A DNA stretch of 64,000 nt. Origin: Rhodothermales bacterium (GTDB lineage Bacteria > Bacteroidota > Rhodothermia > Rhodothermales > Bin80). The translations under genes were made by a program, and so were the position numbers. This document shows, one piece after another, positions 8,176-64,000 of the stretch. The stretch covers positions 170,320-234,319 of the forward strand of contig OZ241742.1 of assembly GCA_965200955.1 (NCBI GenBank). The letters are read 5' to 3'. The notes beneath the pieces were generated by a model. The model did no database searches. It had not been told where the DNA came from and saw nothing but the letters and a program-made list of their open reading frames with translations. Position 1 is the stretch's first letter, and each line of letters starts with the position of its first letter.

Positions 8176-9780
8176 CTACAACATTGAAAAATGTTCAGCA
8201 ATCTGATCCAATTTTTCAATGACTTCTGGATGAATTTCCTGTTTCTCCATCTCAGCCGCGATTTGATAAAAGTCTCGTTCATCGATATTCAAAAATGCAG
8301 AATTGAAGAATTGAGATAGTAGGCTTTTTGCTTTGATTTGCTGATAATAATTAGATGTATCAAGCATGTTATCGTATACTACTGGGGGTAACTGATCACG
8401 AATGAATAATGTTACTTTCTGGGCAGACTGTACTCCATGGTTCTTTTCTACAAATCGAGTGATTGCATCAGGATGGATCAGATAACTCTCTATCTCATAC
8501 CTTTCCCAGTACATGCGTATCATCCCCTTAGGGAGTTTAGGCATCGTACTGCGATCTTTTCCATTGCTATCACACAACTCCACTCCTCTAAAATCAGGCA
8601 CAAGTCCTTTAAGAGCAACAAAATGTCGAGTAGCGGACCATTCATTCCGAGCAGTTTCCCATGTAAATGGACACTCAAGAAATGGTAATAGAGGGTGCTC
8701 CAAAATACGTGCCCATTCCTTCAAAATGAGAATATCTGTGGATCCTTCAATATATAATATTTTTGCTTCTGTCTGTGCATTACAGATATCTACATTTTCG
8801 AGGTATAATGTATCTGATACTTTTCGTTTATCCGTGATCGTATACATTTCACTTCCCAATACACGGAGATCATCTCTTTGAACCGTGTTGATGAGCCGTT
8901 CAGAATGCGTAGCAATAATAAGTTGAGTTTGATTTTGACGAACACGCTTTAATAAATGCTGATAAATCTTATTCTGCAATAGAACATGCAGATGTGCATC
9001 TGGCTCGTCAATGAGTACAACTGAATTCTGTTCGTAAAGTAAAGTTGCATAAACCATTAAAATTTGTAAAAAGCCAGCTGCCGCACTACTCAATTCATAA
9101 AAAGTATCACTCATTGAATGACGATAACGTACATATACCTCAGCAGCTCCACTGGGAGGGTCCAACTCAAATCCAAAAAATGACCGAACGATAGATCTCA
9201 ACTCATTCCATTTATCCGAATCCTGGCTGATATGTAATAGCATATTCCGAAGGATGCTACCTCCTTGTCGGCGTGCCAACCGGGCTGTAATCACTATTCT
9301 ATCATAAAGTGGCTCCCTTAAATCCAACCCCGTAAATGGAGGAATATATGTGGAATGGATCGGTTGTTTGACGTATTTGTCTATATCACTTTCTTTCACC
9401 TCTTGGACTGGACGAATATCGGCTAACTCCCGCTCATGATAGATTATTTCAAAGCCGATTTTCCATGACTTTGTGTGTAACCATATGGATGAAGGATAAC
9501 GAACATTTTTACTGTGCCACAGATGATCAAAATCTATCAATGGCACCGATTGAAACTCTAAGACATTCAAACGAATACTCGGATAATTGCCATCTTCTTC
9601 CCGAGCGAGATCTGGAAAATTTTTTGACCAATGAGATGCAAATTCTATCCAACATGCGATAGCTTGAAGAAGTGTTGTTTTACCAGAGTTATTCTGACCA
9701 ACAATGACAACGTGATCAGGAAGATCAAACTCCAAATGCTCAAACTTCTTGAAGTGGTTGATAATCACTTTTTTGATCAT
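8176..9780 (-). CDS. ABC-type ATPase fused to a Toprim/DUF4435-like C-terminal domain (OLD-family or fused AriA-AriB/PARIS-like candidate)
   Basis: Walker A VGQNNSGKTTLLQAI, signature-like ELSSAAAGFLQIL, Walker B VVLIDEPDAHLH, H-loop IIATHSERL. The C-terminal ~200 aa start with KILYIEGSTDILILKEW (E-G-x-x-D as in Toprim-like DUF4435/RloB domains) and carry a later acidic patch VELCDSNGKD. The likely start is the Met at 9780 (MIKKVIINHFKKFEHLEF), not 9825. Confidence 0.6.
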   Translation of the reverse strand: MIKKVIINHFKKFEHLEFDLPDHVVIVGQNNSGKTTLLQAIACWIEFASHWSKNFPDLAREEDGNYPSIRLNVLEFQSVPLIDFDHLWHSKNVRYPSSIWLHTKSWKIGFEIIYHERELADIRPVQEVKESDIDKYVKQPIHSTYIPPFTGLDLREPLYDRIVITARLARRQGGSILRNMLLHISQDSDKWNELRSIVRSFFGFELDPPSGAAEVYVRYRHSMSDTFYELSSAAAGFLQILMVYATLLYEQNSVVLIDEPDAHLHVLLQNKIYQHLLKRVRQNQTQLIIATHSERLINTVQRDDLRVLGSEMYTITDKRKVSDTLYLENVDICNAQTEAKILYIEGSTDILILKEWARILEHPLLPFLECPFTWETARNEWSATRHFVALKGLVPDFRGVELCDSNGKDRSTMPKLPKGMIRMYWERYEIESYLIHPDAITRFVEKNHGVQSAQKVTLFIRDQLPPVVYDNMLDTSNYYQQIKAKSLLSQFFNSAFLNIDERDFYQIAAEMEKQEIHPEVIEKLDQIAEHFSML

Positions 9781-10074
9781 CCTGTAACGATAGTCATTTA
9801 TTATTGATGTACTACAGCATCGCACCTCAACTGTGCGATTAATTCATGCAGGCAAATGTTGTAGAGACAACAGAATATTTACCCTGAAACCGTAACTGCT
9901 CATGCCAGCCTCTATATACCAGCTATCTGCAGTTGTTCTACATGAATCAACGCTGTCATTTGAAAATTGTTCAATACAATAACCATACACGTTTGAAGAA
10001 AATGAGCACTTCATAATGAGGTTTGATTGATAGTATCCTTCTTATTCCGCATAGATCATTAGGGATGCTCCCCC

Positions 10075-11469
10075 TTAATTGCCATAGCGAGTATTATTAT
10101 TAACAAGTAAACTTTTATCTCCTGATCCCATGTAACGTTCAAGTAATGGGTGAGGGCCTTGTTCATCCATTGTATTTTCGTAGCATCCATGCACCAACCG
10201 AAATCTCTGCGTAGAAAATTGACCATTAGAATCTATTCTGAAATGGTGAACTCGGGCCATAAAATCATTAAATGTCATGCATGCAGCTTGCATATTCAAG
10301 GAGATCACAGCTGGCTGTTGCTCTCCCACACTGGTCAAGTATCCATTCTCAAGTTGTTGATCATAATACTCAGGATCTAATCGCTTCCAGTTTTCGGCGG
10401 TAACTTGAGACATAGTATATGCTCCACGAGATAATAAGCTTCCACCTTCAGGATAAGTATAGTGTGTAACTGCATCAGCGACTGTAATGCACCCATTGCC
10501 ATCAGCCTCTAAATGCACTCCTGTATCAAAATAAGGAATCAGGTATGCACTCGCTATACAATCTAAATGATAACGACCAAATGCCGTGTCCACACATCCA
10601 AAAATCACATCGCAGTCAATTAAGGCATCTTTAACATCTGGGCAGTCGGTCAATCCACAATAGGTATCAACCTTTGTCCCCGTGCCAATATTTTTAATAG
10701 CCCGTGCAATTGAAGAAACCTTAGATCGTTGACTTTTGGCATCATCTACGGTGCTGTTGATAATTCGATTTAAATTTTTCTCCTCTATGAGATCGTCATC
10801 AACGATCACTAATTCGCCGACACAATTACGAACGAGGAGTTCAATCAGGATACTACCAGTGCCTGAACAACCAATCACCCCCACCCGTAGTGACTGCAAT
10901 AGATTCAATGTCCCCTGACCAAAAATCTGGGAGAGATGATCTCTGTACTCCGCCTGTTGATGATCTTGGTTTAGTTTCCAGATGCAAATATTTTCTCCAA
11001 CCACAGATACAGCTGGCATTTGATTAAATGTTCCTTGCACATCTACTGTACGTGCTGTAATACGGCCATCTGGTAAAGCAATTGCTGACCCATTCAAGCG
11101 TCCATCATCAAACCAATTACATATTGATGAAAATAACCTTTGATCATTATGATCGTCAACCTCTGAAAACTCAGTACAACCACTTGGATGGGAGTGAATG
11201 ATGATAATGGACTGACCATTTTGATCTATCTCGCTGATCCTTTGAGGAGTGAAGAAGTCTTCCACTGGCCACGAGATGAAATCTTGTTTTCTGTCTGAGA
11301 GAGATCCTGATGGGTAAATGATGTCAGAGACGATCAGACGTTGGTATAGCTTGCCTGAGCCCTGATTGCATAACAAAATTGCTACCGCTTCCAGATTATC
11401 CCCTGGAAAAAGATGAGATATGATAGCGGTGTACTTGCTATCATTCATACTTAGTATAGCCCTCTTCAT
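10075..11469 (-). CDS. JAB/JAMM metallopeptidase fused to ThiF/E1-like adenylyltransferase
   Basis: N-terminal domain has an upstream Glu (NLEAVAIL) and HSHPSGCTEFSEVD, which is exactly H-x-H-x7-S-x2-D. C-terminal domain has the Rossmann motif VGVIGCSGTGSILIELLVRNCVGELVIVDDDLIEEKNLNRI typical of E1/ThiF/MoeB enzymes. The start overlaps the upstream stop as ATGA. Confidence 0.8.
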   Translation of the reverse strand: MKRAILSMNDSKYTAIISHLFPGDNLEAVAILLCNQGSGKLYQRLIVSDIIYPSGSLSDRKQDFISWPVEDFFTPQRISEIDQNGQSIIIIHSHPSGCTEFSEVDDHNDQRLFSSICNWFDDGRLNGSAIALPDGRITARTVDVQGTFNQMPAVSVVGENICIWKLNQDHQQAEYRDHLSQIFGQGTLNLLQSLRVGVIGCSGTGSILIELLVRNCVGELVIVDDDLIEEKNLNRIINSTVDDAKSQRSKVSSIARAIKNIGTGTKVDTYCGLTDCPDVKDALIDCDVIFGCVDTAFGRYHLDCIASAYLIPYFDTGVHLEADGNGCITVADAVTHYTYPEGGSLLSRGAYTMSQVTAENWKRLDPEYYDQQLENGYLTSVGEQQPAVISLNMQAACMTFNDFMARVHHFRIDSNGQFSTQRFRLVHGCYENTMDEQGPHPLLERYMGSGDKSLLVNNNTRYGN

Positions 11470-12572
11470 TTGAGGACTTCACGGTGGAGCATATTCACAA
11501 CAAATTCAATATGCCGTGCTATAGAATCATGTCCAGATTTCCAGTCATAATGGCGAGACCAACGTTGCCACTCCTTGCCGAAATGAGTTTCTGAACTTAA
11601 ACTTGATATGGGTGAGCCATCCATTTTTTCAAGTGGATGCCAGAAGTAAAACATGTCTAGTGCTGATCCTGGGTAACCTATCGGAACGAGAATCATCAAA
11701 GTAGATTTTCTATAAATGTAACCTTTGGGAAGCGGAAATTCCTTAATGATCAGACCATACTTTGCGTTACCCTCCATCTTTTTTGACCACCTTGATGGAT
11801 AATGTTGATCTAAGTATTGGATATCTTCAGGTAAGAATCCAAATGTGTATGGTCTGCCGTACTGTGCCTGTTTAGGAACCGTTTCAAATCGTTCTATACC
11901 ACAGTGAGATAGATTGATTTGATCATCTGTTGCAACCCTTTCCCGTTTACCACCATGCCATTTCTTATTTAGAGACCATTCATCGGTACGCTTTTCCGCC
12001 AATGCCAGAATTTCAGCACCCGAAAGCGTATCAGAGTCTACGACATGTTGAGTGGTGTCAATACGGATACAGTATGAATAGCCCCGCGGAGGTTTACGAT
12101 TGTGCTTTCCGCATTCTTCATGATCGATCACATCTTCCAAGCTGGGAGGGATGACAAAGTAGGAGTCCTGTTCCTGGATGATGATTGTCATATCATCTGA
12201 GATCTCAACATCTACCTCACCATGAGACTCTATAAACAAACGCCCTTCAGGAAAAGTGGAGTCAAATTTCTTGAGTTCTTTTCCTGTAATTTTGACCGAA
12301 TCAATCACTATGTTACGAGCACTATTGAATACTGGCCTCACCTCATTGCATTGAGATGATACTTCCTCATTGATATCCTTTTTTGTCTTTAACACCTCCC
12401 CCCCATGAACACAGAGATATTCGCCAATCATCAAGGGAATCTCCAAATCGTTGTATCTGACTAAAAAGAGTTGCATATTCCCACAATCTGCAAGTTCATA
12501 GAGATCTGTAATCTCAATTAAGCCACTGGGGAGTGAGTGATCTTTCCCATCAATTTGGATCAGAGTTTGCAT
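11466..12572 (-). CDS. Multi-ubiquitin-like (tandem beta-grasp) protein fused to a cysteine-less E2/UBC-like domain (Prok-E2_E-like)
   Basis: 368 aa. Three beta-grasp-like modules at approximately res 1-65, 78-145 and 165-239. The third reads YCIRIDTTQHVVDSDTLSGAEILALA...INLSHCGIERFETVPKQAQYG. The C-terminal ~130 aa (LPKGYIYRKSTLMILVPIGYPGSALDMFYFWHP) resemble an E2 fold. Assignment is from memory of the Aravind-group families, not from an HMM. Confidence 0.6.
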   Translation of the reverse strand: MQTLIQIDGKDHSLPSGLIEITDLYELADCGNMQLFLVRYNDLEIPLMIGEYLCVHGGEVLKTKKDINEEVSSQCNEVRPVFNSARNIVIDSVKITGKELKKFDSTFPEGRLFIESHGEVDVEISDDMTIIIQEQDSYFVIPPSLEDVIDHEECGKHNRKPPRGYSYCIRIDTTQHVVDSDTLSGAEILALAEKRTDEWSLNKKWHGGKRERVATDDQINLSHCGIERFETVPKQAQYGRPYTFGFLPEDIQYLDQHYPSRWSKKMEGNAKYGLIIKEFPLPKGYIYRKSTLMILVPIGYPGSALDMFYFWHPLEKMDGSPISSLSSETHFGKEWQRWSRHYDWKSGHDSIARHIEFVVNMLHREVLK

Positions 12573-12722
12573 ATCCTTATTCGGATCGTACGCGGAGGGT
12601 TGTCAAATATACGTAACGAACTCAATTGTTTTGTCTCAACTCATTCCGGCTATGATGCACCAATATAGTGAGTCAAGTTTTGAACATATTTTCATGAATA
12701 CCATCAACGCTAAATGTGATCC

Positions 12723-13676
12723 CTAATGATGAATGTTCAAGGTGTTGACGGCTTCAACAACCTGATCGTGGACGATACCATTGGTTGCAATGATTCCTAT
12801 GTTATGTTCTAACCGTTTACCACGACTGAAATCAAGTTGATTTCCTTTGCAGTCGGTCACCTTTCCACCCGCTTCTGAGAGTAACAGTGCTCCTGCTGCA
12901 TGATCCCAGATTCGTTCTACATAGCCATTACCAAGGGGGAGGCGCATATAGATGTCTGCATCACCGCTCGCTACTACTGCGTACTTTGCCTGACTGTCTA
13001 ATTGAACGCGGTCGGATGTGATCCCTAAATCTCGTGCAACCTTTTGGATGTCTCCAAGAGCGGTATGTCCAGATTCTACACTTTGACAAATTCTTGCCTT
13101 AGAAACATCGGAAATTTCAGTTACTTGAATACGATGTTGTCCGTGAGTTGCCCCAAGTCCTTTGGCTACCAAAAAAACATCATCACTCATATTGGGACAA
13201 GCAAGTCCTCCAACCACTACCTTCCCACCTTCTATCAATGCCAAGGCCACTGCATACTGCCCTCCTCGTAAAAAGCCTTTGGTCCCATCAATAGGATCCA
13301 ATGTCCAAAAACGATCAGAATAATGCTCAGCATTACCATAGTCAATCCATTTCAGGGCCGCCTCTAACAGGGTTCCAGGGCGAACTGCATCAAGATGCAT
13401 TCCTAATGTATTGCGAAGATCTGTCTGTTCTTCAGCACGCAACAGAGTGCTGTCTTCTTCGGCAATAATGGGATCATCAGGAAAGGCTTCGCGAAGTGTT
13501 CGACATACCAGTGCCTGACTTCCAAAATCTGCAATGGTGACGGGGCTCTTGTCTCCTTTAATCATTGCCTGTCGATCTTGCACAGAATGACATAACCGAG
13601 CTGCCTCGTGAAGAGCTTGCTTCACGGCATCCAATTCTTTTTCGTACATATTACTACTCATTCTCAATTGATACAA
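12723..13676 (-). CDS. 3'(2'),5'-bisphosphate nucleotidase / inositol monophosphatase family
   Basis: Motifs IIAEEDS, WTLDPIDGTKGFL and WDHAAGALL. An alternative start at the Met at 13649 would remove the 23-nt overlap with the upstream gene. Confidence 0.85.
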   Translation of the reverse strand: MYQLRMSSNMYEKELDAVKQALHEAARLCHSVQDRQAMIKGDKSPVTIADFGSQALVCRTLREAFPDDPIIAEEDSTLLRAEEQTDLRNTLGMHLDAVRPGTLLEAALKWIDYGNAEHYSDRFWTLDPIDGTKGFLRGGQYAVALALIEGGKVVVGGLACPNMSDDVFLVAKGLGATHGQHRIQVTEISDVSKARICQSVESGHTALGDIQKVARDLGITSDRVQLDSQAKYAVVASGDADIYMRLPLGNGYVERIWDHAAGALLLSEAGGKVTDCKGNQLDFSRGKRLEHNIGIIATNGIVHDQVVEAVNTLNIHH

Positions 13677-14124
13677 TCATGGTTTCAAATGATGGAATCT
13701 GATCTAAAAAATGGTAGCTTTGTAGAGACTGATCCACCTGACAACAGTAGTGTTGCATACCATTAGTAACCACGAGATATGGAACTTTCAATCCTAAATT
13801 ATAATACCCTACTTGATTGAAAACGCCCTGTCCTAATTGAACGGATGATCTTTTACACTCTACCACCAATATTGGTACAACTTGACGATTATAGACAACA
13901 ATGTCAGCCCTATACTGGCGTTCACGAATTGGAATGCTAACCTCAATATCAATGAGTCCACGCGGGACATTTAAATGGCTCATCATGTATTGTACAAAAT
14001 GCTGACGTACCCATTCTTCGGGCGTTAGAGTAACAAAACGTTTCCGTATAGGATCCAGAATCACAACGCGTCCATTGTGGTTACGGAGTTCGTAGTCATA
14101 AGCTGGCAGGTTCAACTGCTCCAT
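13654..14124 (-). CDS. Small HsdR-N-terminal-like (PD-(D/E)XK) domain protein
   Basis: 156 aa. TPEEWVRQHFVQYM..., RADIVVYNRQ..PILVVECKR (D...E-x-K core), then VVTNG. This is the pattern of the ~150-aa HsdR_N-domain proteins common in Bacteroidota. Confidence 0.7.
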   Translation of the reverse strand: MEQLNLPAYDYELRNHNGRVVILDPIRKRFVTLTPEEWVRQHFVQYMMSHLNVPRGLIDIEVSIPIRERQYRADIVVYNRQVVPILVVECKRSSVQLGQGVFNQVGYYNLGLKVPYLVVTNGMQHYCCQVDQSLQSYHFLDQIPSFETMIVSIENE

Positions 14125-14177
14125 ATCTTCAAACGAATTGGTGGATCAAATTCTCCATCTAATGGTTAGCACTGTCA

Positions 14178-14251
<74 letters not shown>

Positions 14252-14797
14252 CAGTTAGCATGTCAGTTTCTATATTTTCCAGATCCCGTCTGGTCTCCCC
14301 TCTAATGATTACTGTCTTCAAAGGACCCATTATACTCACCCATCCTTATACTGTTAATATAACTCTACTGTACAACCTTGTAACGAGCTCAGAATTCAAA
14401 TCAATTACCCGAAACCATCATTTTTCTTGAATTCCACGATTCTATGGATGCATTTAGACGGTTGAAACCTCATCAATTCCTTTATCTACTGGTCATCAAC
14501 CTTCAACAAGGTTCTACTCAGAGTCCAATAAAAACGTGACAAAAATGACAATTTCCCGAGGTGAATGTCTGTAAAAATCAATTTGATGATTTCGTATTTT
14601 AGAATAGTGTGGTATTTTGTTGATTCCCCTAAAAAGCGTATTTTATCAATAGTGATGCTTTCATAGATCTCTCAGGATAACATCAGTCATGTAGTTATCT
14701 CCAAGATTTACAACAGATGATCCAAATCCATTGATCAATCATCCCGGTTGGAATGAATCGCATACGACTTTTTTGAACTTTCATTAACTACATTTAA

Positions 14798-16873: not shown

Positions 16874-17650
16874 GACAAGGAGGCGAGAAAGGGGTAAGAC
16901 AAATCCAACAGAACGCTTCCCAGTGGGCAATCACTCGACCATCTTAAAAGTCCACCCCCAGAAAAGCATAGATCTCCCGAAAAAAAGAAAAAGAAGTACA
17001 GGCGACGAGGCGGCTCAGATCAAGAGCGATAGTAGCGCTCCCTCCCTACCCCGTTCCTACTACTCCATTCATGCGACCCAATCTGCTACATAGTACAGTT
17101 TGTCATATCATTCCCAATGAAAATCGAGTGCAGGTCATTATCTATCTTTCCACTTGTTTGATCTGAACAAAGCATTGATTTGTAATCAGCACCCCTGCTG
17201 ATTTGCTGTATCATTTGCACGGAGGGAGCATTTCTCCACATCCTATCTCGTTTTCTGTCCATTCATCACCGTCAGAATCCATGCGACATGAATGGAGTGT
17301 TATCTATAAAAAATGCCTAAACTTCCTTCTATTTTAGAATAAATATTGATCGGACTTCCTAAAATCGGGCCACTCCCAAATAAGTATTCATCTTGTAGAA
17401 GAAATGATTGTTCGTGAAATACTCGTTCTTGACTCAGTCCAGCTACAACTAGTCTCAGGCGAACTGCCGGATCAACTTCAGAAATCAATGACTACACAAA
17501 GATCCCAAACTCACGAACATCATCCCTAACAACAGATATTGAATCGATCGGGTGTATATTAATCAAGCTAACTCGGAGGAAGATCAGGGAGAGTGTGAGA
17601 TGGATCATGATGAGATTCGGTCAATGTGTGACATAGATTCATGCACATAA

Positions 17651-17684
17651 TCAGCGTTACCATGCAAACTGGGCTCACTTATGG
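17651..17684. repeat. IR-a, cassette copy: 34-bp perfect inverted repeat of 18918-18951
   Basis: tcagcgttaccatgcaaactgggctcacttatgg equals the reverse complement of 18918-18951, checked base by base. Confidence 0.95.
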
Positions 17685-17827
17685 CTGATAGATTCTCACA
17701 ATGGATTTGGCTCCATCCCACCCGTTGATGTTAAACAATTTAGTGCAGTAAAACAACATTTAGATCAGTATTGGGATAAACTATCAAATCGGCTTGATAA
17801 GGGAAATACTCCATATAATCTACGTAA

Positions 17828-17902
17828 TTGTGCTTATCACGATATTTTTTCTCAGGAAAAGTTGTTTTGGATTACTCTCAGTACTCAGGGAAGATTTGCC
17901 TA
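17828..17902. repeat. IR-b, cassette copy: 75-bp perfect inverted repeat of 18673-18747
   Basis: ttgtgcttatcacgatattttttctcaggaaaagttgttttggattactctcagtactcagggaagatttgccta equals the reverse complement of 18673-18747, checked base by base. It extends 9 more nt with one mismatch. Confidence 0.95.
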
Positions 17903-18311
17903 CTGCAACCAACCAGAATTTTTCTGCGTGGATAGTGCGTTTATTCTAACGGGTGAACATTCTAAGATACTTAGTGCTCTATTAAATTCAAGTCTGATTC
18001 AGTGGTTTATCACATACAGTGCACCAACTTCAGGAATGGGTGTCTTGCAGTGGAAGAAAACGTACCTACAAGAAATTCCAGTACCATTAAATATTGGGGA
18101 AAGACAGCCGCTCATAGCATTGATTGACCAAATTCTTAGACTGAAAGATGAAAATCCAAATTCGGACATATCTTCAATTGAATCAGAAATAGACAATGAG
18201 ATATTTAATTTATTTGAACTTACATCACCGGAGAGAAACCTCATAACTCAAATACATTGAGTAGTCCGCCGATAGAAATTATGTATTTCAACTAACCTGA
18301 AAATCGTGGTA

Positions 18312-21300
18312 CTAAACGTTAGTTTCAATAACACAAATTTCATGATCTGTTAAATCATAAAGATTATATACAAAGTGATCAAGTCTTTTTTTCAAGACTA
18401 AATACTCAGATTTATTATTGTGCAAGTTGGCTTGCGTAATCATGTCGACTAAACTACCATAAGTATAACTGTCTCCGTCGCATGGTTTAGGAATTGGGAT
18501 TTCAATTACACATGATTTGAGCCATTGAGTCTCACCCATTCCAGAAGTTGGTGCAGTATTTCTCACGAACCATGAAATAAGCTTTGAATTCAGAATTACA
18601 CATAGAAACTTAGTTGCTCTACCAGATAAGACATATGCACTGTTGGAAACAAAAAATTCCGACTGGTTGCAATAGGCAAATCTTCCCTGAGTACTGAGAG
18701 TAATCCAAAACAACTTTTCCTGAGAAAAAATATCGTGATAAGCACAAGTATCCTGTAATTCAAACCATTGATGAGGTGTTTTTTTTCTCGACTTAACCCC
18801 ATTAGGCAATTGCTCTCCAGTCTGCTCTAAGCGAGATTTTCCATGAGTGAGTAAATATCTCTTGATTGCAGGATACCTATTTATGTTTAAGTTTCTTGAT
18901 GGAAAAGTAGTGATAATCCATAAGTGAGCCCAGTTTGCATGGTAACGCTGAATATCTCGCCCCCTGAGTACAGGCTTCAAAATTTCTGCTGAATTACTGT
19001 CTTCAGCAATAAGTCTATCTTTAGTAGCTTGATCAACAATAAAGGCTTCATTTAAGCCAGTAGTGATCCCACGGTAAATTGAAACTGATTTCCATTCTTT
19101 TAATGGGGTGCCTTTATTGAACATCTTTTCTAAAATACACCATTCACAGTCACTCAATACTCGCCAGATATCATTTCCGTTTGGCCGAATCTTACCCCAT
19201 TGATTTTGGGGAGGTGGAAGAGCATGAGTACCGATGCGATCCAAATCAATTCCTTTGAATTCATTCTGATGATCATTGGGGGAATTTTGAAGAAACAAAA
19301 TACAGGTATCAACATCTGCTTCAAAAACATCTTTACCCACATCTAAAAGAGATAGAGGAGTAGAATGACGCGATAGGTAATTCCGCAATTTCTTGCCGTA
19401 ATTAGCTCGAAGCCAACTATTGGATGTAATGAAAGCCAAAATTCCTTGATCCTTCAGTAACTCGCATGATCTCTCATAAAATAATTGATAAATATCACCC
19501 GTCCTTGCAAAAGTACGATAACCAGCATCTTTGTATAATTTACCAAGTTTCCCGCCATCCTTCTGAAGAGACCGATAAGGTGGATTACCAATCACAATAT
19601 TGAATCCATCCTCAATCCCAAACATATATTGTGGATCAAACCAGTTGGCAATATTATTCTGGTCATATGGATTCCAAGATACTAACTGGTCTGAAGAATT
19701 TGGAGGAAAACCGAGTACCTTGAGTTCTTCCACTAATTCAGACCGCAATTTGGAGTCAATCAATTCACACTTCTGTTTTTTTTCCGTGCTATTGGCGTGA
19801 AAATATCTCTCACGATTAGTCAATAGTTCTTTCTGTAGAACGATAATTTTTTCGCTATTGAGAGTTCCTTCACTAATCAACTTCATCAGAGAATCCGCCG
19901 CGACAAAACGTGTCTCTAAATTTGGAAGAGGTTTGATTCCATAATTGTCTCTACCTTGATCTGATTCTTGCTCAATAATAAGTGAAATAAAGAAGCGTAA
20001 CTTAGTAATCTGACATGCAATCGCTTGAATATCTATTCCATAAATACTATTCTGAATCAAGTATATCTTACGCCCATAATCACCAGAATAGTTCTCAAAT
20101 ATATTGCTAATCTCAATTAATTCCTCATCTCGATCCGCTTTATCAATCGTTTCAAAGGCCTTATCCGATCTAAGTTTAGCTCTATCTTGTTGAAGACTTC
20201 TCCATAGTGAATTATCCTGATCAAGTTGGCGTAATGCGTAAGTCAATTTATGAAGGATAGTCATTGGAAATGCACCTGATCCAACAGCAGGGTCAAGAAT
20301 CTTTAATTCACTGATAAAACGAACAATTTCCTTCTTGTTTAGATCACTGAATTCTTCAGTTTTTATCTCATAATCAAAAAGTGAACGTAAACGATTTTCC
20401 CAAGACTTTATATTCCCATCTACTGGCTTAATCATTTTGCTCAACAGTGTAATTATCACCTCATCCACCATGTAATTAACAATATTTCTTGGAGTGTAGA
20501 ATGAACCAGTTTCATTTCTGGCAGTGTTTCTTGTTTCAGGGTTGTATGAAGCAAGTAGGTTTTCAAACACTAGTCCAAGCAGTTCTGGATCAAGGGCTAC
20601 ATCAATCTCTGTTGGAGTATTTTCTTCAACAGTAAATTTGTATTGATTAAGGATGGTAAATAAGCCGCTGGCACCAAAAAATAAATCATCTGGTACATTT
20701 AGACTTTCCCTGAATACTTTTTCACTTTCGGAAGCTCCATCCATTAAATAATCATCGTTAAACATGTCCAACTTCTTCGCATTCTGATCTTCATTTTTAT
20801 GATCATCAAGACAATCAAACAGTCCACCATTAATGAATGGAGTTTGTGCCATGAGTTCCTCAAAATGCTCAACTTGATCAATCAGAATCTGATATCTCCA
20901 ATGACTTGTTGTATACATTGGATCACCGTCATTGGTAGGTGTCCACGATCGCTTTTCCATGGGGACATTAAGCGTTGCGAAAAAAAGATTCTGAAGAACC
21001 GCTTGGTAGTAGTCTGATCCACCAAAATGATGAAGTAGATTTCTCATCTTTGACTTAGAGAACCACTCTTCTGAAACAAGTCCTTTTTCCTTCATAAACC
21101 ATACAAAGAGTATGCGTGTCACGCAACGAATTACTTGTTGCTCTGGTGAGACACCAGTGGGCCAAGTTGCAGTTGAAACGGCACGTTCAAACCATTCAAA
21201 CAGTTGTTGATAGAATTGACGATTAAGCGGTTTCGTATCAAGAACAGATTCCCATTTGTCATGGAGTTGATCAAAATTCTTAACACTCTTGTGCTTCTTT

Positions 21301-21890
21301 AGTGAAAGATTTTGTAAGATATCTAAATGTGCACGATGGGGATCTTTGACGCGAATATCCTTGATAAGCGTAACTTTTTCAAGAACATCTTTTGAGTGAT
21401 CTCTTAGGTGAGGTCGACGATGAATCAATGCAGTTGTTAGGTCTCGCTTATCAGATGTTTTACCATATCGATAAAACATGATCACTGGCATTTTGAAAAT
21501 CTTATTCACAATCCGAGTCATCTCTGCTAATTTGCCCCTCGTATATTTTTCTTCGCTTAAATCAACCGCGACAAAGAGAAAAGACTGGATGCGACCTTGG
21601 TCAAATTCAGTGGATGAAAAAATAGTGGATTCTTGAATCTCATCATCCGTTATTTGAAATACAATTTCTGCCTGATCCCAATGCTGTCTCAGCAAATCAA
21701 TCTGTTTATCTTTCACATTCTCCTCCGCTTTACCCCACTCTATGAAAGTGGTTAGATTATTATTTTCGGGTGGTAATACCTTATTACTGGTGTAACCAAG
21801 TTCAGAAAGTAATCGAACTGTGCTGTCTCGCAGAGATCCATCCGCAAAATCACGAATGGTATTAGAAATAGTTTGTTCAGATTGATGCAT
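18312..21890 (-). CDS. Large gamma-class N6-adenine DNA methyltransferase with C-terminal target-recognition region (Eco57I/PglX/DrmMI-like)
   Basis: 1192 aa. SAM-binding motif I ILDPAVGSGAFPM lies upstream of catalytic motif IV VIGNPPYRSL. A TaqI_C-like specificity region follows (ILAFITSNSWLRANYGKKLRNYL ...). The start overlaps the upstream helicase gene by 14 nt. Confidence 0.85.
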   Translation of the reverse strand: MHQSEQTISNTIRDFADGSLRDSTVRLLSELGYTSNKVLPPENNNLTTFIEWGKAEENVKDKQIDLLRQHWDQAEIVFQITDDEIQESTIFSSTEFDQGRIQSFLFVAVDLSEEKYTRGKLAEMTRIVNKIFKMPVIMFYRYGKTSDKRDLTTALIHRRPHLRDHSKDVLEKVTLIKDIRVKDPHRAHLDILQNLSLKKHKSVKNFDQLHDKWESVLDTKPLNRQFYQQLFEWFERAVSTATWPTGVSPEQQVIRCVTRILFVWFMKEKGLVSEEWFSKSKMRNLLHHFGGSDYYQAVLQNLFFATLNVPMEKRSWTPTNDGDPMYTTSHWRYQILIDQVEHFEELMAQTPFINGGLFDCLDDHKNEDQNAKKLDMFNDDYLMDGASESEKVFRESLNVPDDLFFGASGLFTILNQYKFTVEENTPTEIDVALDPELLGLVFENLLASYNPETRNTARNETGSFYTPRNIVNYMVDEVIITLLSKMIKPVDGNIKSWENRLRSLFDYEIKTEEFSDLNKKEIVRFISELKILDPAVGSGAFPMTILHKLTYALRQLDQDNSLWRSLQQDRAKLRSDKAFETIDKADRDEELIEISNIFENYSGDYGRKIYLIQNSIYGIDIQAIACQITKLRFFISLIIEQESDQGRDNYGIKPLPNLETRFVAADSLMKLISEGTLNSEKIIVLQKELLTNRERYFHANSTEKKQKCELIDSKLRSELVEELKVLGFPPNSSDQLVSWNPYDQNNIANWFDPQYMFGIEDGFNIVIGNPPYRSLQKDGGKLGKLYKDAGYRTFARTGDIYQLFYERSCELLKDQGILAFITSNSWLRANYGKKLRNYLSRHSTPLSLLDVGKDVFEADVDTCILFLQNSPNDHQNEFKGIDLDRIGTHALPPPQNQWGKIRPNGNDIWRVLSDCEWCILEKMFNKGTPLKEWKSVSIYRGITTGLNEAFIVDQATKDRLIAEDSNSAEILKPVLRGRDIQRYHANWAHLWIITTFPSRNLNINRYPAIKRYLLTHGKSRLEQTGEQLPNGVKSRKKTPHQWFELQDTCAYHDIFSQEKLFWITLSTQGRFAYCNQSEFFVSNSAYVLSGRATKFLCVILNSKLISWFVRNTAPTSGMGETQWLKSCVIEIPIPKPCDGDSYTYGSLVDMITQANLHNNKSEYLVLKKRLDHFVYNLYDLTDHEICVIETNV
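18673..18747. repeat. IR-b, copy inside the active methyltransferase gene
   Basis: Reverse complement is identical to 17828-17902 (75/75). Confidence 0.95.
18918..18951. repeat. IR-a, copy inside the active methyltransferase gene
   Basis: Reverse complement is identical to 17651-17684 (34/34). Confidence 0.95.
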
Positions 21891-24800
21891 CGGTAGAGTC
21901 TAAAATTGCAACCCAAGTGACTAGTTCAAATGAGTGTGCCCCGTAAGGAACATCTGGTAGATTAAGCAGTTTGGCAGATCGATTATTGAATAAATCTTCC
22001 AGCTGAGTTCTGGAAAATTTCCCGCGAATTTGCCGGATTGCTGAATCCAACATTTTCTCATAGTGAGACATATCACTGCCATTATGTGTCTTTTGATCAA
22101 ACGCTCCTACAAGTGCACGAATGGGTTCAGTTCGATTGGTTGCCAAATTACGAAATAGCGTGAGTATTTTCTTCGGCTGGTTGAACAGATACCTAACGGT
22201 TCCATCATCACGAACATAGGATAAAAAATAGGGATGTAATCGATTAGGTGTACGGACAGATCCAGAGTTTTTTTGTTTGAGACAAAATATAACTCCTGGG
22301 GCAATCTTTTCAGATGTAGGGACTGTTGGTTCAACTGGAACAACCGTACTGATTCCAAACGGGGCTTTTTCCAGTTCTTCACGTTTAGACTGGAGATACA
22401 TTTTCAGATCTGCTAAAAAGTCATCAATCGTGAAATCACTCAGAGAGACTCCATCATCTATTTCTTCAAGATCAAGACTCTCTTCTCGGATTCGCATCAG
22501 CTGTGCATCTCGAAAGTTCAACTCAGACTGCAGACTATCATGAACTTCTTCCTTTGAATTCGTAGTAAGAAGATCATTGCGACCAGTTGCGGCGGCATCT
22601 ACCAAAGCCATTCGAGAAATCACACGGTCCTTCAAGTTCAGATACCGTTCAAGGTCTTTGGTTGGCCAAAAATTTACCATCTGCACTTTCTGGTTACGAC
22701 TACCAATTCTATCAATACGCCCAAAACGTTGCATCAGACGTACAGGATTCCAGTGAATGTCATAATTCACGACCATGTCACAGTCTTGGAGATTTTGACC
22801 CTCAGATAAACAGTCGGTAGTAATCAGTATATCAATCTGATCTGACTTAGGGTCCGAGTGTTGTGCCATTGGTGCAAAACGTGAAAGTATTCCTCCAAAT
22901 TCGCGAATCCCTAAACTACTGTTGTTATCCCTTTGACCACCAGTGACGATTGCGATATGAACATAAAGTTCAGTGATTGCCCAATCCTTGAGGTTATTGT
23001 ACAAATAAACGGCAGTGTCTGAGAATGTGGTAAAGATCAACACTTTTCGATTAGACTCAGATTTGTTAACCAATGGCAGTTCGTATACTTTTTCTTTCAG
23101 GAGTTTTTTTAATTCAGCAAGTTTGGCATCCCTTGTGACACCTACTGCACTCGCTTCTACATAAACATCTCTTAAAACACTACGATCTTTTCGTATATCT
23201 TCCCTCCACTCCTTGAGTTTTAGCTCGATAAATCTATACGTCCTCCCTTTTCCGACGACAAACTCATCATCATCTTCAACTAATTCGTCATCTATGATGA
23301 GAGACTCCGTGTCCTCTGACCGGTCTTCATACCACCTCTCAATCATTGAATCCAGTGCATCCATTTTGCTTAAAATCCTTCCAATCGTAAGTGTGAATGA
23401 CTGAATGGAACTCTCCAATCTCTTTAACAGATTAACCCGCATCATTCCCACAAGCCAAGTTTCTCGATCTTTTTGGTTGAAGTTTAACCGATCCTTTTCA
23501 CCATCCAACTCAGATGTGTCTTTGACATACCATGATGGTTGATAGATTGCCAAGCTGAAACTGCTAATTTGTTCATGTAGATCATCGTAGGATAGTTCTT
23601 GATGCGTATCGGTATGCGGATGTAAGTTTCTTGGACTCTCTCGTTCGGGAAAACCTCCGATTTCCTTCTCAACCTCTGGATAAGCTTTTTGAATGTGCTT
23701 GCGAGAGCGTGCAATAGTGATAGCATCAAGGATCGCAAAGAAATCAGCTCCCAGCTTTTCAATTAATGCGTTCTTGTTACGGCTTGGATTTTCGTCTTGT
23801 GCCCATTTTTGAAATTCTCTTTGAGCTAATTTGAACACATTCTGAATGTCATCAATTCCAAGGGAATCACGGAATGCATCCTGACGCTTTTCAGTGATCA
23901 AATAAATTTGATTCCGAAGATCTCGGAGGCTTGTATTGACGGGGGTAGCTGAAAGCATCAGCACCTTGGTTTCACTTCCGGACTTCAATACATCTTCTAA
24001 CAATCGAGTGTATCTACTCCTTGAAATCAATTCGCCAGATTCATCCTTCTTGTCACGCCCCTCATTACGAAAATTATGAGATTCGTCAATAACAATTAGA
24101 TTGTAGGCACCCCAGTTGAAATCGGCGAGATCAATGATCCCTGACATTCCTTTTGAACGACTCAAATCAGTATGTGCAAGAACCGAATAATTGAGTCTGT
24201 CTTCTATCAAGGGGTTATTCGTGGACCCAGCAGAGGATAGATACCTCAGCCAATTTTGCTCAAGTTTTTTGGGGCAGAGAACTAAAACTCTTTGATTTTG
24301 AAGTTGAAAATACTTGATCACAGCCAATGCTGTCCATGTCTTCCCCAAACCAACACTATCTGCAATGATACACCCATTATGGCGAGACAACCGATTGATT
24401 GCACTCACAGCTCCGTCTTTCTGAAATGAATACAATGATTTCCATACCTTTGTATCGTACAGATGACTTGGACCAATGATATCCTCATGATCTTGAATCT
24501 CATCTAGTTTTTCTTCAAGCACATGAAACAAGGTCTTGTAATAAATGAATTCTGGCGAATAATTTTGTCCCAACCTTTGCAGAATCTCAAGGACCTCCTG
24601 TTTTGCATCACGCGTGAGATCATGATTATTCCAAAGCTGATTAAACCAATCCAAGAGAGGCTCACGATCAGGTTCATGTCCTACCTCAAGATTTAATTCA
24701 ATATTCGGGTTCCCTCCTAACCCCAAACCCCTCCTCGTAAAATTCGAACTACCGAGTACGACCTTGGAATTATCTTCCCCCTGATTCAAATGATAGAGTT

Positions 24801-25170
24801 TACCGTGGAGAAAATTGCTTTTTTGAATTGTTCTGATTTCCACTTTATCACGAATCCATTTTTCACATGCTATAGCAATCGGCTTTTGAGAAAGGATCTG
24901 CTTCAGCTCAATTCCACCATCGTCAGTCAAGCGATAATCTTTATGGTCACTTTTTGAAGGATCAATGACTTGTAATCCTCCTGGATCTCCATATAAAAAG
25001 CGTAATTCTTCAATCAGATCTAACTGATCTTTTAAATCGTGATAGGCATAAATGGTAAAATATGCCGATACGATCGATAGCTTAGTTGAAGAATCAAGTT
25101 CTTGGCTGAGGAAATCACCCAGCTTTCGATCTTGATTATCTATGATTGAATTCTTGAAAAGTGTGGTCAT
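21877..25170 (-). CDS. PLD-family (single HKD-like) nuclease domain fused to SNF2-type SF2 ATPase
   Basis: N-terminus: LHGKLYHLN...VVLGSSNFTRRG (H-x-K ... G-S-x-N PLD/Nuc-type motif). ATPase: IIADSVGLGKTWTA (motif I), LIVIDESHNFRN (II), LMLSATPVNTSLRDL (III), TDCLSEGQNLQDCDMVVNYDIHWNPVRLMQRFGRIDRIGS (V-VI). Confidence 0.85.
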   Translation of the reverse strand: MTTLFKNSIIDNQDRKLGDFLSQELDSSTKLSIVSAYFTIYAYHDLKDQLDLIEELRFLYGDPGGLQVIDPSKSDHKDYRLTDDGGIELKQILSQKPIAIACEKWIRDKVEIRTIQKSNFLHGKLYHLNQGEDNSKVVLGSSNFTRRGLGLGGNPNIELNLEVGHEPDREPLLDWFNQLWNNHDLTRDAKQEVLEILQRLGQNYSPEFIYYKTLFHVLEEKLDEIQDHEDIIGPSHLYDTKVWKSLYSFQKDGAVSAINRLSRHNGCIIADSVGLGKTWTALAVIKYFQLQNQRVLVLCPKKLEQNWLRYLSSAGSTNNPLIEDRLNYSVLAHTDLSRSKGMSGIIDLADFNWGAYNLIVIDESHNFRNEGRDKKDESGELISRSRYTRLLEDVLKSGSETKVLMLSATPVNTSLRDLRNQIYLITEKRQDAFRDSLGIDDIQNVFKLAQREFQKWAQDENPSRNKNALIEKLGADFFAILDAITIARSRKHIQKAYPEVEKEIGGFPERESPRNLHPHTDTHQELSYDDLHEQISSFSLAIYQPSWYVKDTSELDGEKDRLNFNQKDRETWLVGMMRVNLLKRLESSIQSFTLTIGRILSKMDALDSMIERWYEDRSEDTESLIIDDELVEDDDEFVVGKGRTYRFIELKLKEWREDIRKDRSVLRDVYVEASAVGVTRDAKLAELKKLLKEKVYELPLVNKSESNRKVLIFTTFSDTAVYLYNNLKDWAITELYVHIAIVTGGQRDNNSSLGIREFGGILSRFAPMAQHSDPKSDQIDILITTDCLSEGQNLQDCDMVVNYDIHWNPVRLMQRFGRIDRIGSRNQKVQMVNFWPTKDLERYLNLKDRVISRMALVDAAATGRNDLLTTNSKEEVHDSLQSELNFRDAQLMRIREESLDLEEIDDGVSLSDFTIDDFLADLKMYLQSKREELEKAPFGISTVVPVEPTVPTSEKIAPGVIFCLKQKNSGSVRTPNRLHPYFLSYVRDDGTVRYLFNQPKKILTLFRNLATNRTEPIRALVGAFDQKTHNGSDMSHYEKMLDSAIRQIRGKFSRTQLEDLFNNRSAKLLNLPDVPYGAHSFELVTWVAILDSTDASI

Positions 25171-25387: not shown

Positions 25388-26346
25388 TTACAAAAATTTT
25401 GCTCCTGCATGATCTTCAAAAACAGAAGCATCTCGAATATATTGGAGTACAGTTGCAGGATTTCTGTGTCTTGTCACCTCCATAATCTTGTCCAATCGTG
25501 CATGATGAACTGCAGCACTTGTCACAAAGCCAGCCCTGAGAGAGTGTCCTGAGTAATCGACTGGTGAGAGTCCGATCTTCTCGGCGTATTTCTTAACAAT
25601 TCTTGGTATCTCACTATGGTTCAAAGGCTTTCCAGATAAATGCCCACCCTTCCTAAATGTCTGAAATAAATAGCCATGCAGAAGGTTTGTTTTTTCTATC
25701 CATGTATGTAATCGAGTGACAGGACGAATAGATTTACCCTCTAAGACTGCGATCATTTGCCCGTTTCCTTGTTGATCGGTTTTTGATTGGCGAATCGTTA
25801 ATATTATTCGGTCAGAAGATATAAAATTCACATCTTCCATCTTGAGACTACATAATTCCGAACGTCGGAGAGCCGCGGCAAACCCAAGTGAAATAATTGC
25901 AGAGTCCCGGAGTCCAAAAAGTGTATCTGAACAACTCTCCAACATAGCACTGATATCATATTCACGCAATGCCTTCACTCTTCTTGGAGAATCATTACGA
26001 ATCCGTGATAAGCCTCCAAGTACATCGGTAACACGAACCGCTGAAGCTGGTGACTCTATATCTTTCTCTGTGAAGCACCAATTCAATGCACTTCGGTATA
26101 GTCTAAGGGTTCCTGAAGATAGCTTTTGATCCGAGTTTCTTTTCCTCAGAGAGGAAAGCCAAATAAAAAATTCACAATATCGTCAGAAGAAGCTGCTTCT
26201 GGCTCAATCTCTTGATTATCACAAAATTGTTGAAATCGCTTCCAAGCCTTGTTGTATGCCAGACGAGTATTATCAGAATAGGCTGCTCTTCGCAATTGTT
26301 CTGCCGTACAGGTCATAGCATCTTGTAGATGTGATGATACCATCAA
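25388..26346 (-). pseudogene. Tyrosine recombinase/integrase split by a frameshift at a homopolymer tract
   Basis: ORF 26146-26346 is the SAM-like N-terminal domain (SDNTRLAYNKAWKRFQQFC). ORF 25388-26086 is the catalytic domain (AAALRRSEL..., HSLRAGFVT, LQYIRD with the catalytic Tyr). The downstream frame is already open from about 26185 and reads EFFIWLSSLRKRNSDQKLSSGTLRLYRSALNWCF. The two frames meet in the A6 run 26165-26170, and one extra A would give a continuous ~319-aa protein. Confidence 0.75.
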
Positions 26347-49805: not shown

Positions 49806-50562
49806 TATCAATCTACGGGTATGGAAATTGCAAATCTACCGACATCTATCTTGCAAATCTACCAACATCTATTTTGCAAATCTACGGGTATGAAAACTGC
49901 AAATCTACCGACATCTATCTTGCAAATCTACGGGTATGGAAATTGCAAATCTACCGACATCTATCTTGCAAATCTACCAACATCTATTTTGCAAATCTAC
50001 GGGTATGAAAACTGCAAATCTACCGACATCTATTTTGCAAATCTACGGGTATGAAAACTGCAAATCTACCGACATCTATCTTGCAAATCTACGGGTATGG
50101 AAACTGCAAATCTACCGACATCTATTTTGCAAATCTACGGGTATGAAAACTGCAAATTTACCGACATCTATTTTGCAAATCTACGGGTATGAAAACTGCA
50201 AATTTACCGACATCTATTTTGCAAATCTACGGGTATGAAAACTGCAAATCTACCGACATCTATTTTGCAAATCTACGGGTATGAAAACTGCAAATCTACC
50301 GAGACCTATCTGCAAATCTACGGGTATGGAAACTGCAAATCTACCGACATCTATTTTGCAAATCTACGGGTATGAAAACTGCAAATTTACCGACATCTAT
50401 TTTGCAAATCTACGGGTATGAAAACTGCAAATCTACCGACATCTATTTTGCAAATCTACGGGTATGAAAACTGCAAATCTACCGAGACCTATCTGCAAAT
50501 CTACGGGTATGGAAACTGCAAATCTACCGAAGCGTATAATGCAAATCTACCGAAAACATAAT
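49806..50562. repeat. Tandem array of 33 phased 23-bp units (46-bp A+B super-unit), non-coding
   Basis: Parsed unit by unit. A is TGCAAATCTACCGACATCTATTT and B is TGCAAATCTACGGGTATGAAAAC, sharing the 11-nt core TGCAAATCTAC. There are 31 units of 23 nt plus 2 of 22 nt (TGCAAATCTACCGAGACCTATC), totalling 757 nt. Higher-order repeats are present: 50197-50333 is identical to 50380-50516 (183-bp offset), and a 115-bp offset occurs at 49829/49944. Confidence 0.95.
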
Positions 50563-62385: not shown

Positions 62386-62928
62386 ATGAAAGAGATTACC
62401 CTGCGAAACTACCGATGCTTTCATGAAAAGCAGGTCGCTCGGCTTGCCCCCTTGACATTGCTTGTGGGTGATAATAGTACTGGAAAGACATCATTCTTAG
62501 CTATCATACGAGCATTATGGGATTGTATCTATGGACATCGCATTCCGAATTTTAAAGAAGCACCCTTTGACATTGGCACCTTTGAAGAGATCGTATATCG
62601 CCAGAATGGTCGTATACCCCAATCTTCTACTTTTCAAGTGTATATTCATCTGGGTCATGGCTTAGAGGCTGGATTTGAATTTGGTAAACAAAATACAGCC
62701 CCCGTACCAGTAAAAATAGATCTAGGGGATAATGGCGTATGGCTCAAAGAATTCCATGATGGCGAAGGCAAATCATGGATTCATGTTATCACTCCTCAAG
62801 GAAGTTGGGAAGCACCTCAGATGACGGATACTCGGGGTACAGTGATGTCATTGTTGACATCAAGGCGATTATTATCCACTGCCATCCCAGAGTTATTTTT
62901 TCCCGATTATGGGCATGTTCGAAAATAA
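62386..62928 (+). CDS. N-terminal fragment of an AAA_15/21-type (ABC-like) ATPase, probably truncated
   Basis: MKEITLRNYRCFHEKQVARLAPLTLLVGDNSTGKTSFLAII carries the Walker A motif. The ORF stops after 180 aa with no Walker B or signature motif, about 250 bp before an IS transposase gene. Confidence 0.45.
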   Translation: MKEITLRNYRCFHEKQVARLAPLTLLVGDNSTGKTSFLAIIRALWDCIYGHRIPNFKEAPFDIGTFEEIVYRQNGRIPQSSTFQVYIHLGHGLEAGFEFGKQNTAPVPVKIDLGDNGVWLKEFHDGEGKSWIHVITPQGSWEAPQMTDTRGTVMSLLTSRRLLSTAIPELFFPDYGHVRK

Positions 62929-63180
62929 CTTTCTCATCTAAGTCAATTACAATCCTATTTTAAATTTTTATATCTCTACATTCTTGCTTCATTCAGTTGA
63001 ATTCATTCATTTAAGTTGAAGAGTAGATCTTTCTCTACTTCGCCGTTTATCGCTCCATAACTTATTCAACACACTTTAGATTCTTGCCTGCTGGCAGGTC
63101 TGGCCCCCTATACGATCATTTTTGGACCGTAATGAATCTTATATTTGATTTGATAGTTATATTATTTTTTAATCATAACT

Positions 63181-64000
63181 TTGACTTTTATCATGAATGC
63201 TCCCCGATTTACCTCCGACTCGTTGGCTCAGGTCTTGCAACGCAAAGGCATCTCCACCCTATCCGAATTATCCTCTGAATTTGGCGATTGTTCCTCCCGT
63301 ACACTGTATCGAAAACTCAACGAGTTAGATTACCTGTCCAGCTATTCTCACCGTGGAATGTATTATACACTGCGGACCATTCCAGATTTTGATGCCCACG
63401 GACTTTGGTTTTACAATGACATTGGATTCTCCCATCATGGCACCCTGTCCAATACCTTGAAAGAGTTGGTTGCGTCTTCTCCATTAGGCTATCGCAGCAC
63501 TGAGCTTGATATGCTCCTGAAGGTTCGTACGGCAAACGCATTGGGCAAACTGGTCCATGACCAACAACTCCATCGGATCTGCTTTCAGGGAAAACAGATC
63601 TACTGCTCACCAGATGCTGTTCATTACAAACGACAGCTGAATACGCGTAGAATGCAATTTCAAGACAAGAGTCTGCCTGCATCCATGGAAGCAGATCTGA
63701 CCAAATCAAGGATCATCGCATTATTTTACAGCTTGCTCCATGAAAAACATCGTCGCCTGTTTGCAGGAATGCTCTCTGAATTATGGGGGTATGGAGGTGA
63801 TCTGCGTGTTGAGCGATTGCTGGGAATCAGTCGCAAGACCGTACACAGGGGGCGCAAAGAACTGCATTCAGGTCATCTTGACCCCGATCGCATTCGAAAA
63901 ATGGGTGGAGGGAGGCCTACGATTGAAAAAAAAACGACGGGTATATCCAGCGGTTAGAAGAACTGATGGAATTTGAAACCGCCGGTAGCCCGATGGGTGA
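63181..64000 (+). mobile_element. ISAzo13-family-like insertion sequence (5' part); transposase ORF interrupted at an A9 run and continuing off the window
   Basis: ...HEKHRRLFAGMLSELWGYGGDLRVERLLGISRKTVHRGRKELHSGHLDPDRIRKMGGGRPTIEKK matches the conserved N-terminal region I recall for ISAzo13-type transposases (..RRLFAA.EA...GYGG....A...G.S..T...G..EL.....R.R..GGGRK). After the A9 run 63926-63934 the homologous reading (NDGYIQRLEELMEFETAGSPMG, compare L..LVEP.T.GDPMS) continues in the -1 frame to the window end. Confidence 0.65.

Follow-up and report, generated by a model that had tools for sequence, protein, structure and literature searches.

Long reads have confirmed programmed inversions in a Type II restriction-modification enzyme of Bacteroides ovatus that is homologous to Cj0031 (Milman, Yelin and Kishony, NAR 2023; PMC9881135). 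A coding sequence with PLD and SNF helicase domains lies immediately upstream of the B. ovatus gene (locus in CP083813.1), and homologues of this type with inverted repeats were reported from three phyla (PMC9881135). We analysed a stretch of 64,000 nucleotides from a Rhodothermales bacterium (contig OZ241742.1 of assembly GCA_965200955.1, positions 170,320 to 234,319; hereafter the window), in which a large adenine methyltransferase gene is faced by a silent, inverted copy of its 3' end, the part encoding the target recognition domain (TRD). The locus is probably a recombinase-linked inversion switch, that is, a four-part mobile restriction-modification-like module in which nested inverted repeats allow the TRD ends to be exchanged. 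The four parts are a tyrosine recombinase, a PLD-SNF2 nuclease-helicase, an N6-adenine methyltransferase with a C-terminal TaqI_C-type TRD, and the silent, start-less inverted TRD copy, or cassette. Their positions in the window, together with those of the outer (IR-a) and inner (IR-b) inverted repeat pairs, are as follows.

17637..18260, + strand: silent inverted cassette, a start-less, stop-free copy of the methyltransferase TRD C-terminus, with segment B1, then tail B2, and a TGA end
17651..17684, no strand: IR-a arm of the cassette, 34 bp, perfect, encoding QRYHANWAHLW (17647-17689 at 93%)
17828..17902, no strand: IR-b arm of the cassette, 75 bp, perfect, encoding CAYHDIFSQEKLFWITLSTQGRFAY (17825-17923 at 95%)
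18261..18311, no strand: spacer of 51 bp between the convergent stop codons, in the middle of both invertible segments
18312..21890, - strand: expressed N6-adenine DNA methyltransferase with a TaqI_C-type TRD, 1192 aa, here with segment A1 and tail A2
18673..18747, no strand: IR-b arm within the active gene, exact reverse complement of 17828-17902
18918..18951, no strand: IR-a arm within the active gene, exact reverse complement of 17651-17684
21877..25170, - strand: PLD (HKD) nuclease-SNF2 helicase fusion, 1097 aa, presumably the effector of restriction; the gene overlaps the start of the methyltransferase gene
25388..26343, - strand: tyrosine recombinase gene (Xer-like; Pfam Phage_integrase 2.5e-19), upstream of the PLD-SNF2 gene

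By its published description, class b of Milman et al. shares with the window a PLD and SNF2 coding sequence directly upstream of a large Eco57I-type methyltransferase that is the inversion target, and the same phylum, Bacteroidota. The window has the long target coding sequence of this class, a short inverted partial paralogue that shares the repeats, and the adjacent PLD/SNF2 coding sequence. A variant inverted at IR-b exists in a 99.5%-identical strain, in two independent assemblies. The recombinase gene is present and orthologous to the cassette-side recombinases of relatives, with its frame broken by one base. The evidence in B. ovatus consists of variants coexisting in one culture, whereas that for the window consists of an arrangement that differs between strains and of a comparison across the family.

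An earlier reading of the same DNA, made from its letters without database searches (the sequence-only reading), had likened the locus to phase-variable hsdS and pglX loci. The workings are indeed similar, but membership in either group is ruled out by profile scores or missing genes. Type I hsdS shufflons (Streptococcus pneumoniae SpnD39III/ivr with CreX, Bacteroides fragilis, Mycoplasma pulmonis) resemble the window in that TRD copies lie silent and inverted, several repeats fall in conserved coding blocks, a tyrosine recombinase is linked to the locus and, presumably in the case of the window, methylation/restriction specificities alternate. Unlike these shufflons, the window has its TRD at the C-terminus of the methyltransferase, so that an inversion alters the enzyme gene itself at its 3' end; its effector is a PLD-SNF2 fusion, and segment 1, between the repeat blocks, comes in two types and is not hypervariable. 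The separate hsdS, hsdM and hsdR genes of a Type I shufflon are missing: HsdS and HsdM were not found in the window, where the sole related gene is an HSDR_N_2 open reading frame (ORF) at 13654-14124, outside the module. The pglX inversions of BREX type 1 (Lacticaseibacillus rhamnosus/casei; PMC9881135) likewise concern a large Eco57I-type N6-adenine methyltransferase and are nested and recombinase-linked. The BREX exchange concerns the middle of PglX and takes two inversions, whereas that of the window concerns the C-terminus, and one inversion would suffice for a complete protein. Assignment to BREX type 1 was rejected, since the methyltransferase scored 78.7 bits with the NCBIfam profile BREX_1_MTaseX, against a cut-off of 500, and no BREX genes occur among the neighbours (BrxA/B/C and PglZ are absent).

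Three further systems were compared. Class 1 DISARM (DrmD SNF2, DrmMI methyltransferase, DrmC PLD, DrmA, DrmB) also combines an SNF2 helicase, a PLD nuclease and an adenine methyltransferase, its DrmD and DrmMI profiles give weak matches in the window, and DISARM-like loci are known inversion targets too; unlike in DISARM, PLD and SNF2 are fused in one protein here. It was rejected on the DrmD score (173 bits, cut-off 610) and because DrmA and DrmB (DUF1998) were not found among the window neighbours or in the module of two related loci (L002 and L004). The Cj0031-type Type IIG enzymes of Campylobacter jejuni are large Eco57I/TaqI_C-type enzymes like that of the window, and their activity or specificity is phase-variable. 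In Cj0031 a poly-G tract acts as an on/off switch, whereas the window would use DNA inversion and cassette exchange. With the Type-2 BREX-related (BR) system (PMC12839542) the HKD-SNF2 architecture alone is in common; it was rejected as well, its DUF499 ATPase and DUF3780 not being found in the scanned neighbours or in the L002/L004 module.

The sequence-only reading had described two perfect inverted repeats, of 34 and 75 bp, and reverse-complement matching gave exactly the same coordinates. When mismatches are tolerated, IR-a grows to 43 nt at 93% identity and IR-b to 99 nt at 95%. By our own estimate, the chance of a perfect 75-nt inverted repeat in 64 kb is roughly 1e-36. The sequence also agrees with the description of a headless, stop-free C-terminal copy of 203 codons, tail-to-tail with the active gene and with 51 bp between the stops. 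In the + strand frame 17637-18257 there are 207 codons without a stop (203 from the Asn at 17649), followed by a TGA at 18258-18260, and the earliest possible start codon is a TTG at 17862. The codon phase of the two blocks encoded by the repeats, which had been called conserved coding blocks, does not differ between the expressed and the silent copy. Elsewhere, protein identity between the copies is 36% (58/162), in keeping with the strong divergence reported there. For identical residues with degenerate codons, the same codon is used in 32/33 cases inside the repeats, versus 27/55 outside (Fisher p = 1e-6); DNA identity in the repeats therefore exceeds what protein conservation explains. A tblastn search of the window detected the domain in these two copies only, and no terminator-like hairpin was found in the 18261-18311 spacer.

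In the proposed switch, inversion at IR-a would exchange about the last 200 codons of the expressed gene, and inversion at IR-b the last ~116. The two inversions combined would give four in-frame isoforms, A1A2, A1B2, B1B2 and B1A2. When built in silico, all four were indeed in frame, at 1192 aa for A1A2 (the window), 1191 aa for A1B2 (observed, see below), 1182 aa for B1B2 and 1183 aa for B1A2, in keeping with the earlier proposal of up to four chimeric specificity regions. The linked recombinase would catalyse the inversions, the isoforms would methylate different DNA motifs and direct restriction to them, and the PLD-SNF2 protein would cut unmethylated DNA. Switching would take place within populations.

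The A1B2 arrangement exists as a reciprocal inversion in a near-identical strain. The best database relative of the active protein, P0121 (1191 aa), is the very chimera predicted for inversion at IR-b. Compared in 40-residue blocks, it has an identity of 1.00 with the window protein up to residue 1080, with single mismatches in two blocks, and over its last ~120 residues it matches the tail of the silent cassette at 100% identity. P0121 is encoded on L003, a contig from a MEGAHIT metagenome assembly that represents a strain 99.5% identical to the window (strain B; samples ERZ27277384 and GCA_026708685.1). Positions 1-13239 of L003 correspond to window 31890-18652 at 99.5%, and positions 13141-13946 to window 17825-18630 at 99.9%, in the opposite relative orientation; the crossover between the window and strain B falls within the IR-b arms. 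The A2 tail is in the silent position in L003. As this tail is now silent, the exchange was reciprocal and hence an inversion, not a gene conversion. A contig of a metagenome-assembled genome (MAG) at NCBI (L086, GCA_026708685.1, Bacteroidota), assembled independently, is 99.99% identical to L003 and has an equal arrangement. The sequence-only reading had predicted that inversion at IR-b would swap the C-terminus, and both the flipped arrangement and the chimeric protein are thus present in these two assemblies. A search of JGI metagenomes with an exact 36-nt piece of IR-b returned no contigs of the same species.

Both strain B contigs come from short-read metagenome assemblies and stop near the locus, which would suit the view that there is no biological inversion, only a static decayed duplicate with an assembly artefact at the repeat. 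We consider this exceedingly improbable. The contig name of L003 implies an assembly with k = 141, a length that the 99-nt repeat does not reach; two independent assemblies agree on the arrangement, and the exchange is reciprocal and in frame. Moreover, the 207 cassette codons hold no stop, and other members of the family again show both arrangements, the repeats and the recombinase.

The domains of the encoded proteins are those of a restriction-modification-like module. Pfam assigns Eco57I (1e-35), TaqI_C (3.7e-12, residues 972-1133) and N6_Mtase to the 1192-aa protein, PADLOC matches it to REase_MTase_IIG (8e-123), and its nearest solved structures by sequence are CamA, BseCI, TaqI (M.TaqI) and PglX. 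Both repeats and both variable segments are located within or just past the TaqI_C domain. A gamma-class N6-adenine methyltransferase domain and a TRD are joined in one polypeptide, as in Type IIG enzymes, of which this may be one; a nuclease is encoded instead by the neighbouring PLD-SNF2 gene. Residues 1-460 of the methyltransferase are conserved; they have no Pfam domain, and their confident AlphaFold 2 model (pLDDT 78.7), searched for a nuclease fold, gave no Foldseek match in PDB with E below 0.1. The PLD-SNF2 protein contains PLDc_2, SNF2-rel_dom, ResIII and Helicase_C (Pfam) and matches the PADLOC profile 'HKD+Snf2' C3a139 (2.6e-127).

The recombinase-driven architecture supposed by the sequence-only reading is found in the window as far as gene content goes, with a linked tyrosine recombinase gene at 25388-26343, but this gene is frameshifted. 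That reading had been silent on the gene itself, on the PLD+SNF2 partner and on the long-read precedent of 2023 (PMC9881135). The frame is broken after about codon 59, at a T6 run (~26164-26170) that is T7 in strain B, where the recombinase is intact. With one T restored, an intact 318-aa recombinase is obtained, and the catalytic domain is intact in the window. The window recombinase is 57-60% identical to those beside cassettes in the related loci L001 and L002. Either a genuine mutation that locks the switch or a sequencing error in the homopolymer could account for the frameshift.

A scan of species-representative genomes yielded 80 loci (L006-L085), mostly from sponge-symbiont MAGs and from many phyla. 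The source taxa include Poribacteria, Caldilineaceae, Dehalococcoidia, Latescibacterota, Binatia, Longimicrobiales and Arenicellales, a distribution that suggests horizontal spread of the methyltransferase family within sponge microbiomes. Database relatives of the cassette are short TaqI_C-only ORFs, and in the contexts examined (L001, L002) such ORFs stand tail-to-tail with a homologous methyltransferase gene, near a PLD-SNF2 gene and a recombinase gene. The module is conserved in L001, L002 and L004. The PLD-SNF2 gene is present in 65 of 86 loci, including all 15 that have a cassette; 11 of these 15 are in named MAGs, from six other phyla. In the family as a whole, the cassette, the repeats and the recombinase are invariably found together. 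An orthologous recombinase was found in 15/15 cassette loci, versus 0/53 cassette-less loci with adequate flanks (Fisher p = 2e-15), and it directly adjoins the cassette in most loci. The comparison with related genomes proposed by the sequence-only reading places the repeats at the same two codon blocks across the 15 cassette loci. In the cassette-less loci, an inverted-repeat scan revealed no hidden cassettes of other TRD types overlapping the 3' end of the methyltransferase gene.

Segment 1 exists in two conserved types, A1 (57 aa) and B1 (48 aa), with a mean identity of 67% within a type across loci and ~34% between types. Depending on the genome, either cassette type holds the expressed site: seven loci have the expressed/silent state A/B, six have B/A and two A/A. 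These states are interspersed among the closest pairs, as in L010 (B/A) and L043 (A/B), which share 66% identity. L004, about 58-61% identical to the window, has the gene order of the window in the mirror state (B/A versus A/B), and at the IR-a codons its repeat is perfect over 50 bp. By comparison, the swapped types and the repeat of L004 support the inversion at IR-a that had been predicted, although it was not observed in the species of the window. For the exchange of the silent inverted TRD cassette with the expressed 3' end, the core of the sequence-only reading, there is support from both the flipped strain and the family. In the sum over the 15 loci, codon identity between expressed and silent copies shows two peak zones with sharp edges at the segment 1 borders; the first zone ends exactly at the start of segment 1 and the second begins exactly at CAYH.

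For the 118 full-length homologues, the expressed site was of type A1 in ~85 and B1 in ~33. A rule that type B is always silent had come from the cassette search, which gave short TaqI_C-only proteins, and it was discarded on this full-length typing. The cassette protein search also omitted P0121, its expected top scorer, and seems biased to proteins of similar length. A dimorphism of segment 2, the tail, was rejected too, as clustering gave no two-type structure. A candidate shared core motif, 'TTAYCAY', chosen by eye with no scan, fits IR-b everywhere and was dropped since it fails at IR-a in several loci.

Some loci depart from the common pattern. In L009 (10918-11278/12104-12466) and L019 (10992-11444/11912-12364), type A is in both positions and the perfect repeats reach 314 and 453 bp, respectively; an A/A state of this kind suggests that gene conversion has homogenised the copies. 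The expressed gene bears lesions at its outer repeat junction in L001 (G-run frameshift, 11150-11600), L043 (frameshift, 10800-11250) and L069 (insertion of ~3.5 kb, 10871-14530); these represent either decay or errors in a heterogeneous region. The locus L005 / L077 (Latescibacterota OZ244561.1) is in the chromosomal neighbourhood of L002, has B1 fixed without cassette or recombinase, and has a helicase gene disrupted by an insertion sequence (IS); it looks like a switch lost after flipping.

Several findings, presented in this paragraph and the next, weigh against a working, recombinase-driven switch of specificity. The first concern the catalyst. The inversion may be real and yet result from RecA homologous recombination or gene conversion, with the integrase otherwise employed, for example in island mobility. 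Repeats of 34-75 bp here and up to 314-453 bp in relatives are long enough for that route; their lengths and extents differ between genomes, and a recombinase core site common to them could not be defined. The A/A loci resemble products of gene conversion, and the module looks mobile, by its GC content below that of its flanks (37-41% over 18-26 kb, versus 43-49% in the surroundings) and by its position between duplicated ThuA genes in L004. Against this explanation, recombinase and cassette are each found only where the other is, and cassette-less modules that are equally mobile are without it. Its place directly beside the cassette in most loci, and the homogenised blocks that end sharply at the segment 1 borders in every locus, also speak for a dedicated role. 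We regard the RecA route as improbable.

The other findings concern the state of the switch. No IR-a-inverted variant was found for the species of the window, whose 90% cluster contains the A1A2 and A1B2 forms only, and the two forms were seen in separate strains that diverge by 0.5%, not in a single clone. A segment 1 that keeps 67% identity within a type across phyla is atypical for a hypervariable specificity determinant. With the recombinase frame broken, activity in the window strain is doubtful unless the missing base is a sequencing error, and the strain may be fixed in the A1A2 state. Strain B has lesions of its own. Its PLD-SNF2 gene is split into ORFs of 447 and 653 aa (L003:6722-10014) by an A3 versus A4 difference at window-equivalent 23888, seen in two independent assemblies, and this split of the helicase may inactivate its restriction arm. 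The end of an IS-like element lies inside the silent A2 tail, at window-equivalent 18630 (L003:13943-14134; L086:12905-13010). Such lesions, in strain B and in several relatives, point to frequent decay of these systems.

The window strain could accordingly hold a locked relic, in which a recent inversion was followed by loss of the recombinase to a pseudogene, fixation of A1A2 and inertness of the cassette. The 1-nt deletion in the T7 run relative to strain B, the single arrangement per strain in the available assemblies, the commonness of lesions among relatives and the existence of cassette-less fixed A or B forms such as L005 all fit this account. The deletion is a single-base homopolymer difference, possibly a sequencing error, and the cassette is still stop-free with both repeats perfect, which makes it less likely that the locus has long been free of selection or homogenisation. 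On balance we find a locked relic rather unlikely.

How such a switch is used across the family is a separate matter. We put forward, tentatively and without favouring it, that the module is a horizontally moving, ancient two-state toggle and not a diversity generator, with A1/B1 and the recombinase kept together in at least seven phyla. Either type of segment 1 would be expressible, while the tail segment would vary freely. Under this toggle hypothesis, the module seems to pass between symbionts that share a sponge host. If it is true, a fixed pair of recognition modes would be under long-term selection, possibly two motif classes or strand/half-site modes.

The surroundings of the module in the window contain T9SS sorting domains and SusC-like receptors, which mark a Bacteroidota host. 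Defence-island neighbours are found at 8176-14124:

8176-9825: AAA_15/AAA_21 ATPase (GajA/PtuA/NsnB-like)
10075-11469: JAB+E1 (ThiF) gene, overlapping the Multiubiquitin+E2 gene
11466-12572: Multiubiquitin+E2 gene
13654-14124: small HSDR_N_2 ORF, outside the module

The IS-like element end seen in strain B also occurs in the window at 62908-63097, perhaps extending to 64000, where it truncates an AAA_15 ATPase ORF (62386-62928); a 258-aa ORF beside it (63181-63957) has no Pfam match. A tandem array at 49810-50550, of 16.2 copies of a 46-bp unit with 90% matches, is located between two genes.

The concept and the gene architecture were already published in 2023, and the advance made here is incremental. 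Modestly new are the strict linkage of cassette and recombinase, the conserved A/B dimorphism with either type expressed, the spread among sponge symbionts (six further phyla) and a natural pair of strains in the two states. The co-occurrence of cassette and recombinase, each present only with the other, the conserved repeat positions and the expression of both types provide a rule by which 'orphan' TaqI_C ORFs can be annotated as silent cassettes. The A1A2 and A1B2 strains form a natural pair for direct comparison of motifs. If the isoforms differ in motif, one lineage would alternate between restriction specificities and between genome-wide patterns of N6-methyladenine, and phage resistance, DNA uptake and possibly gene regulation would be affected.

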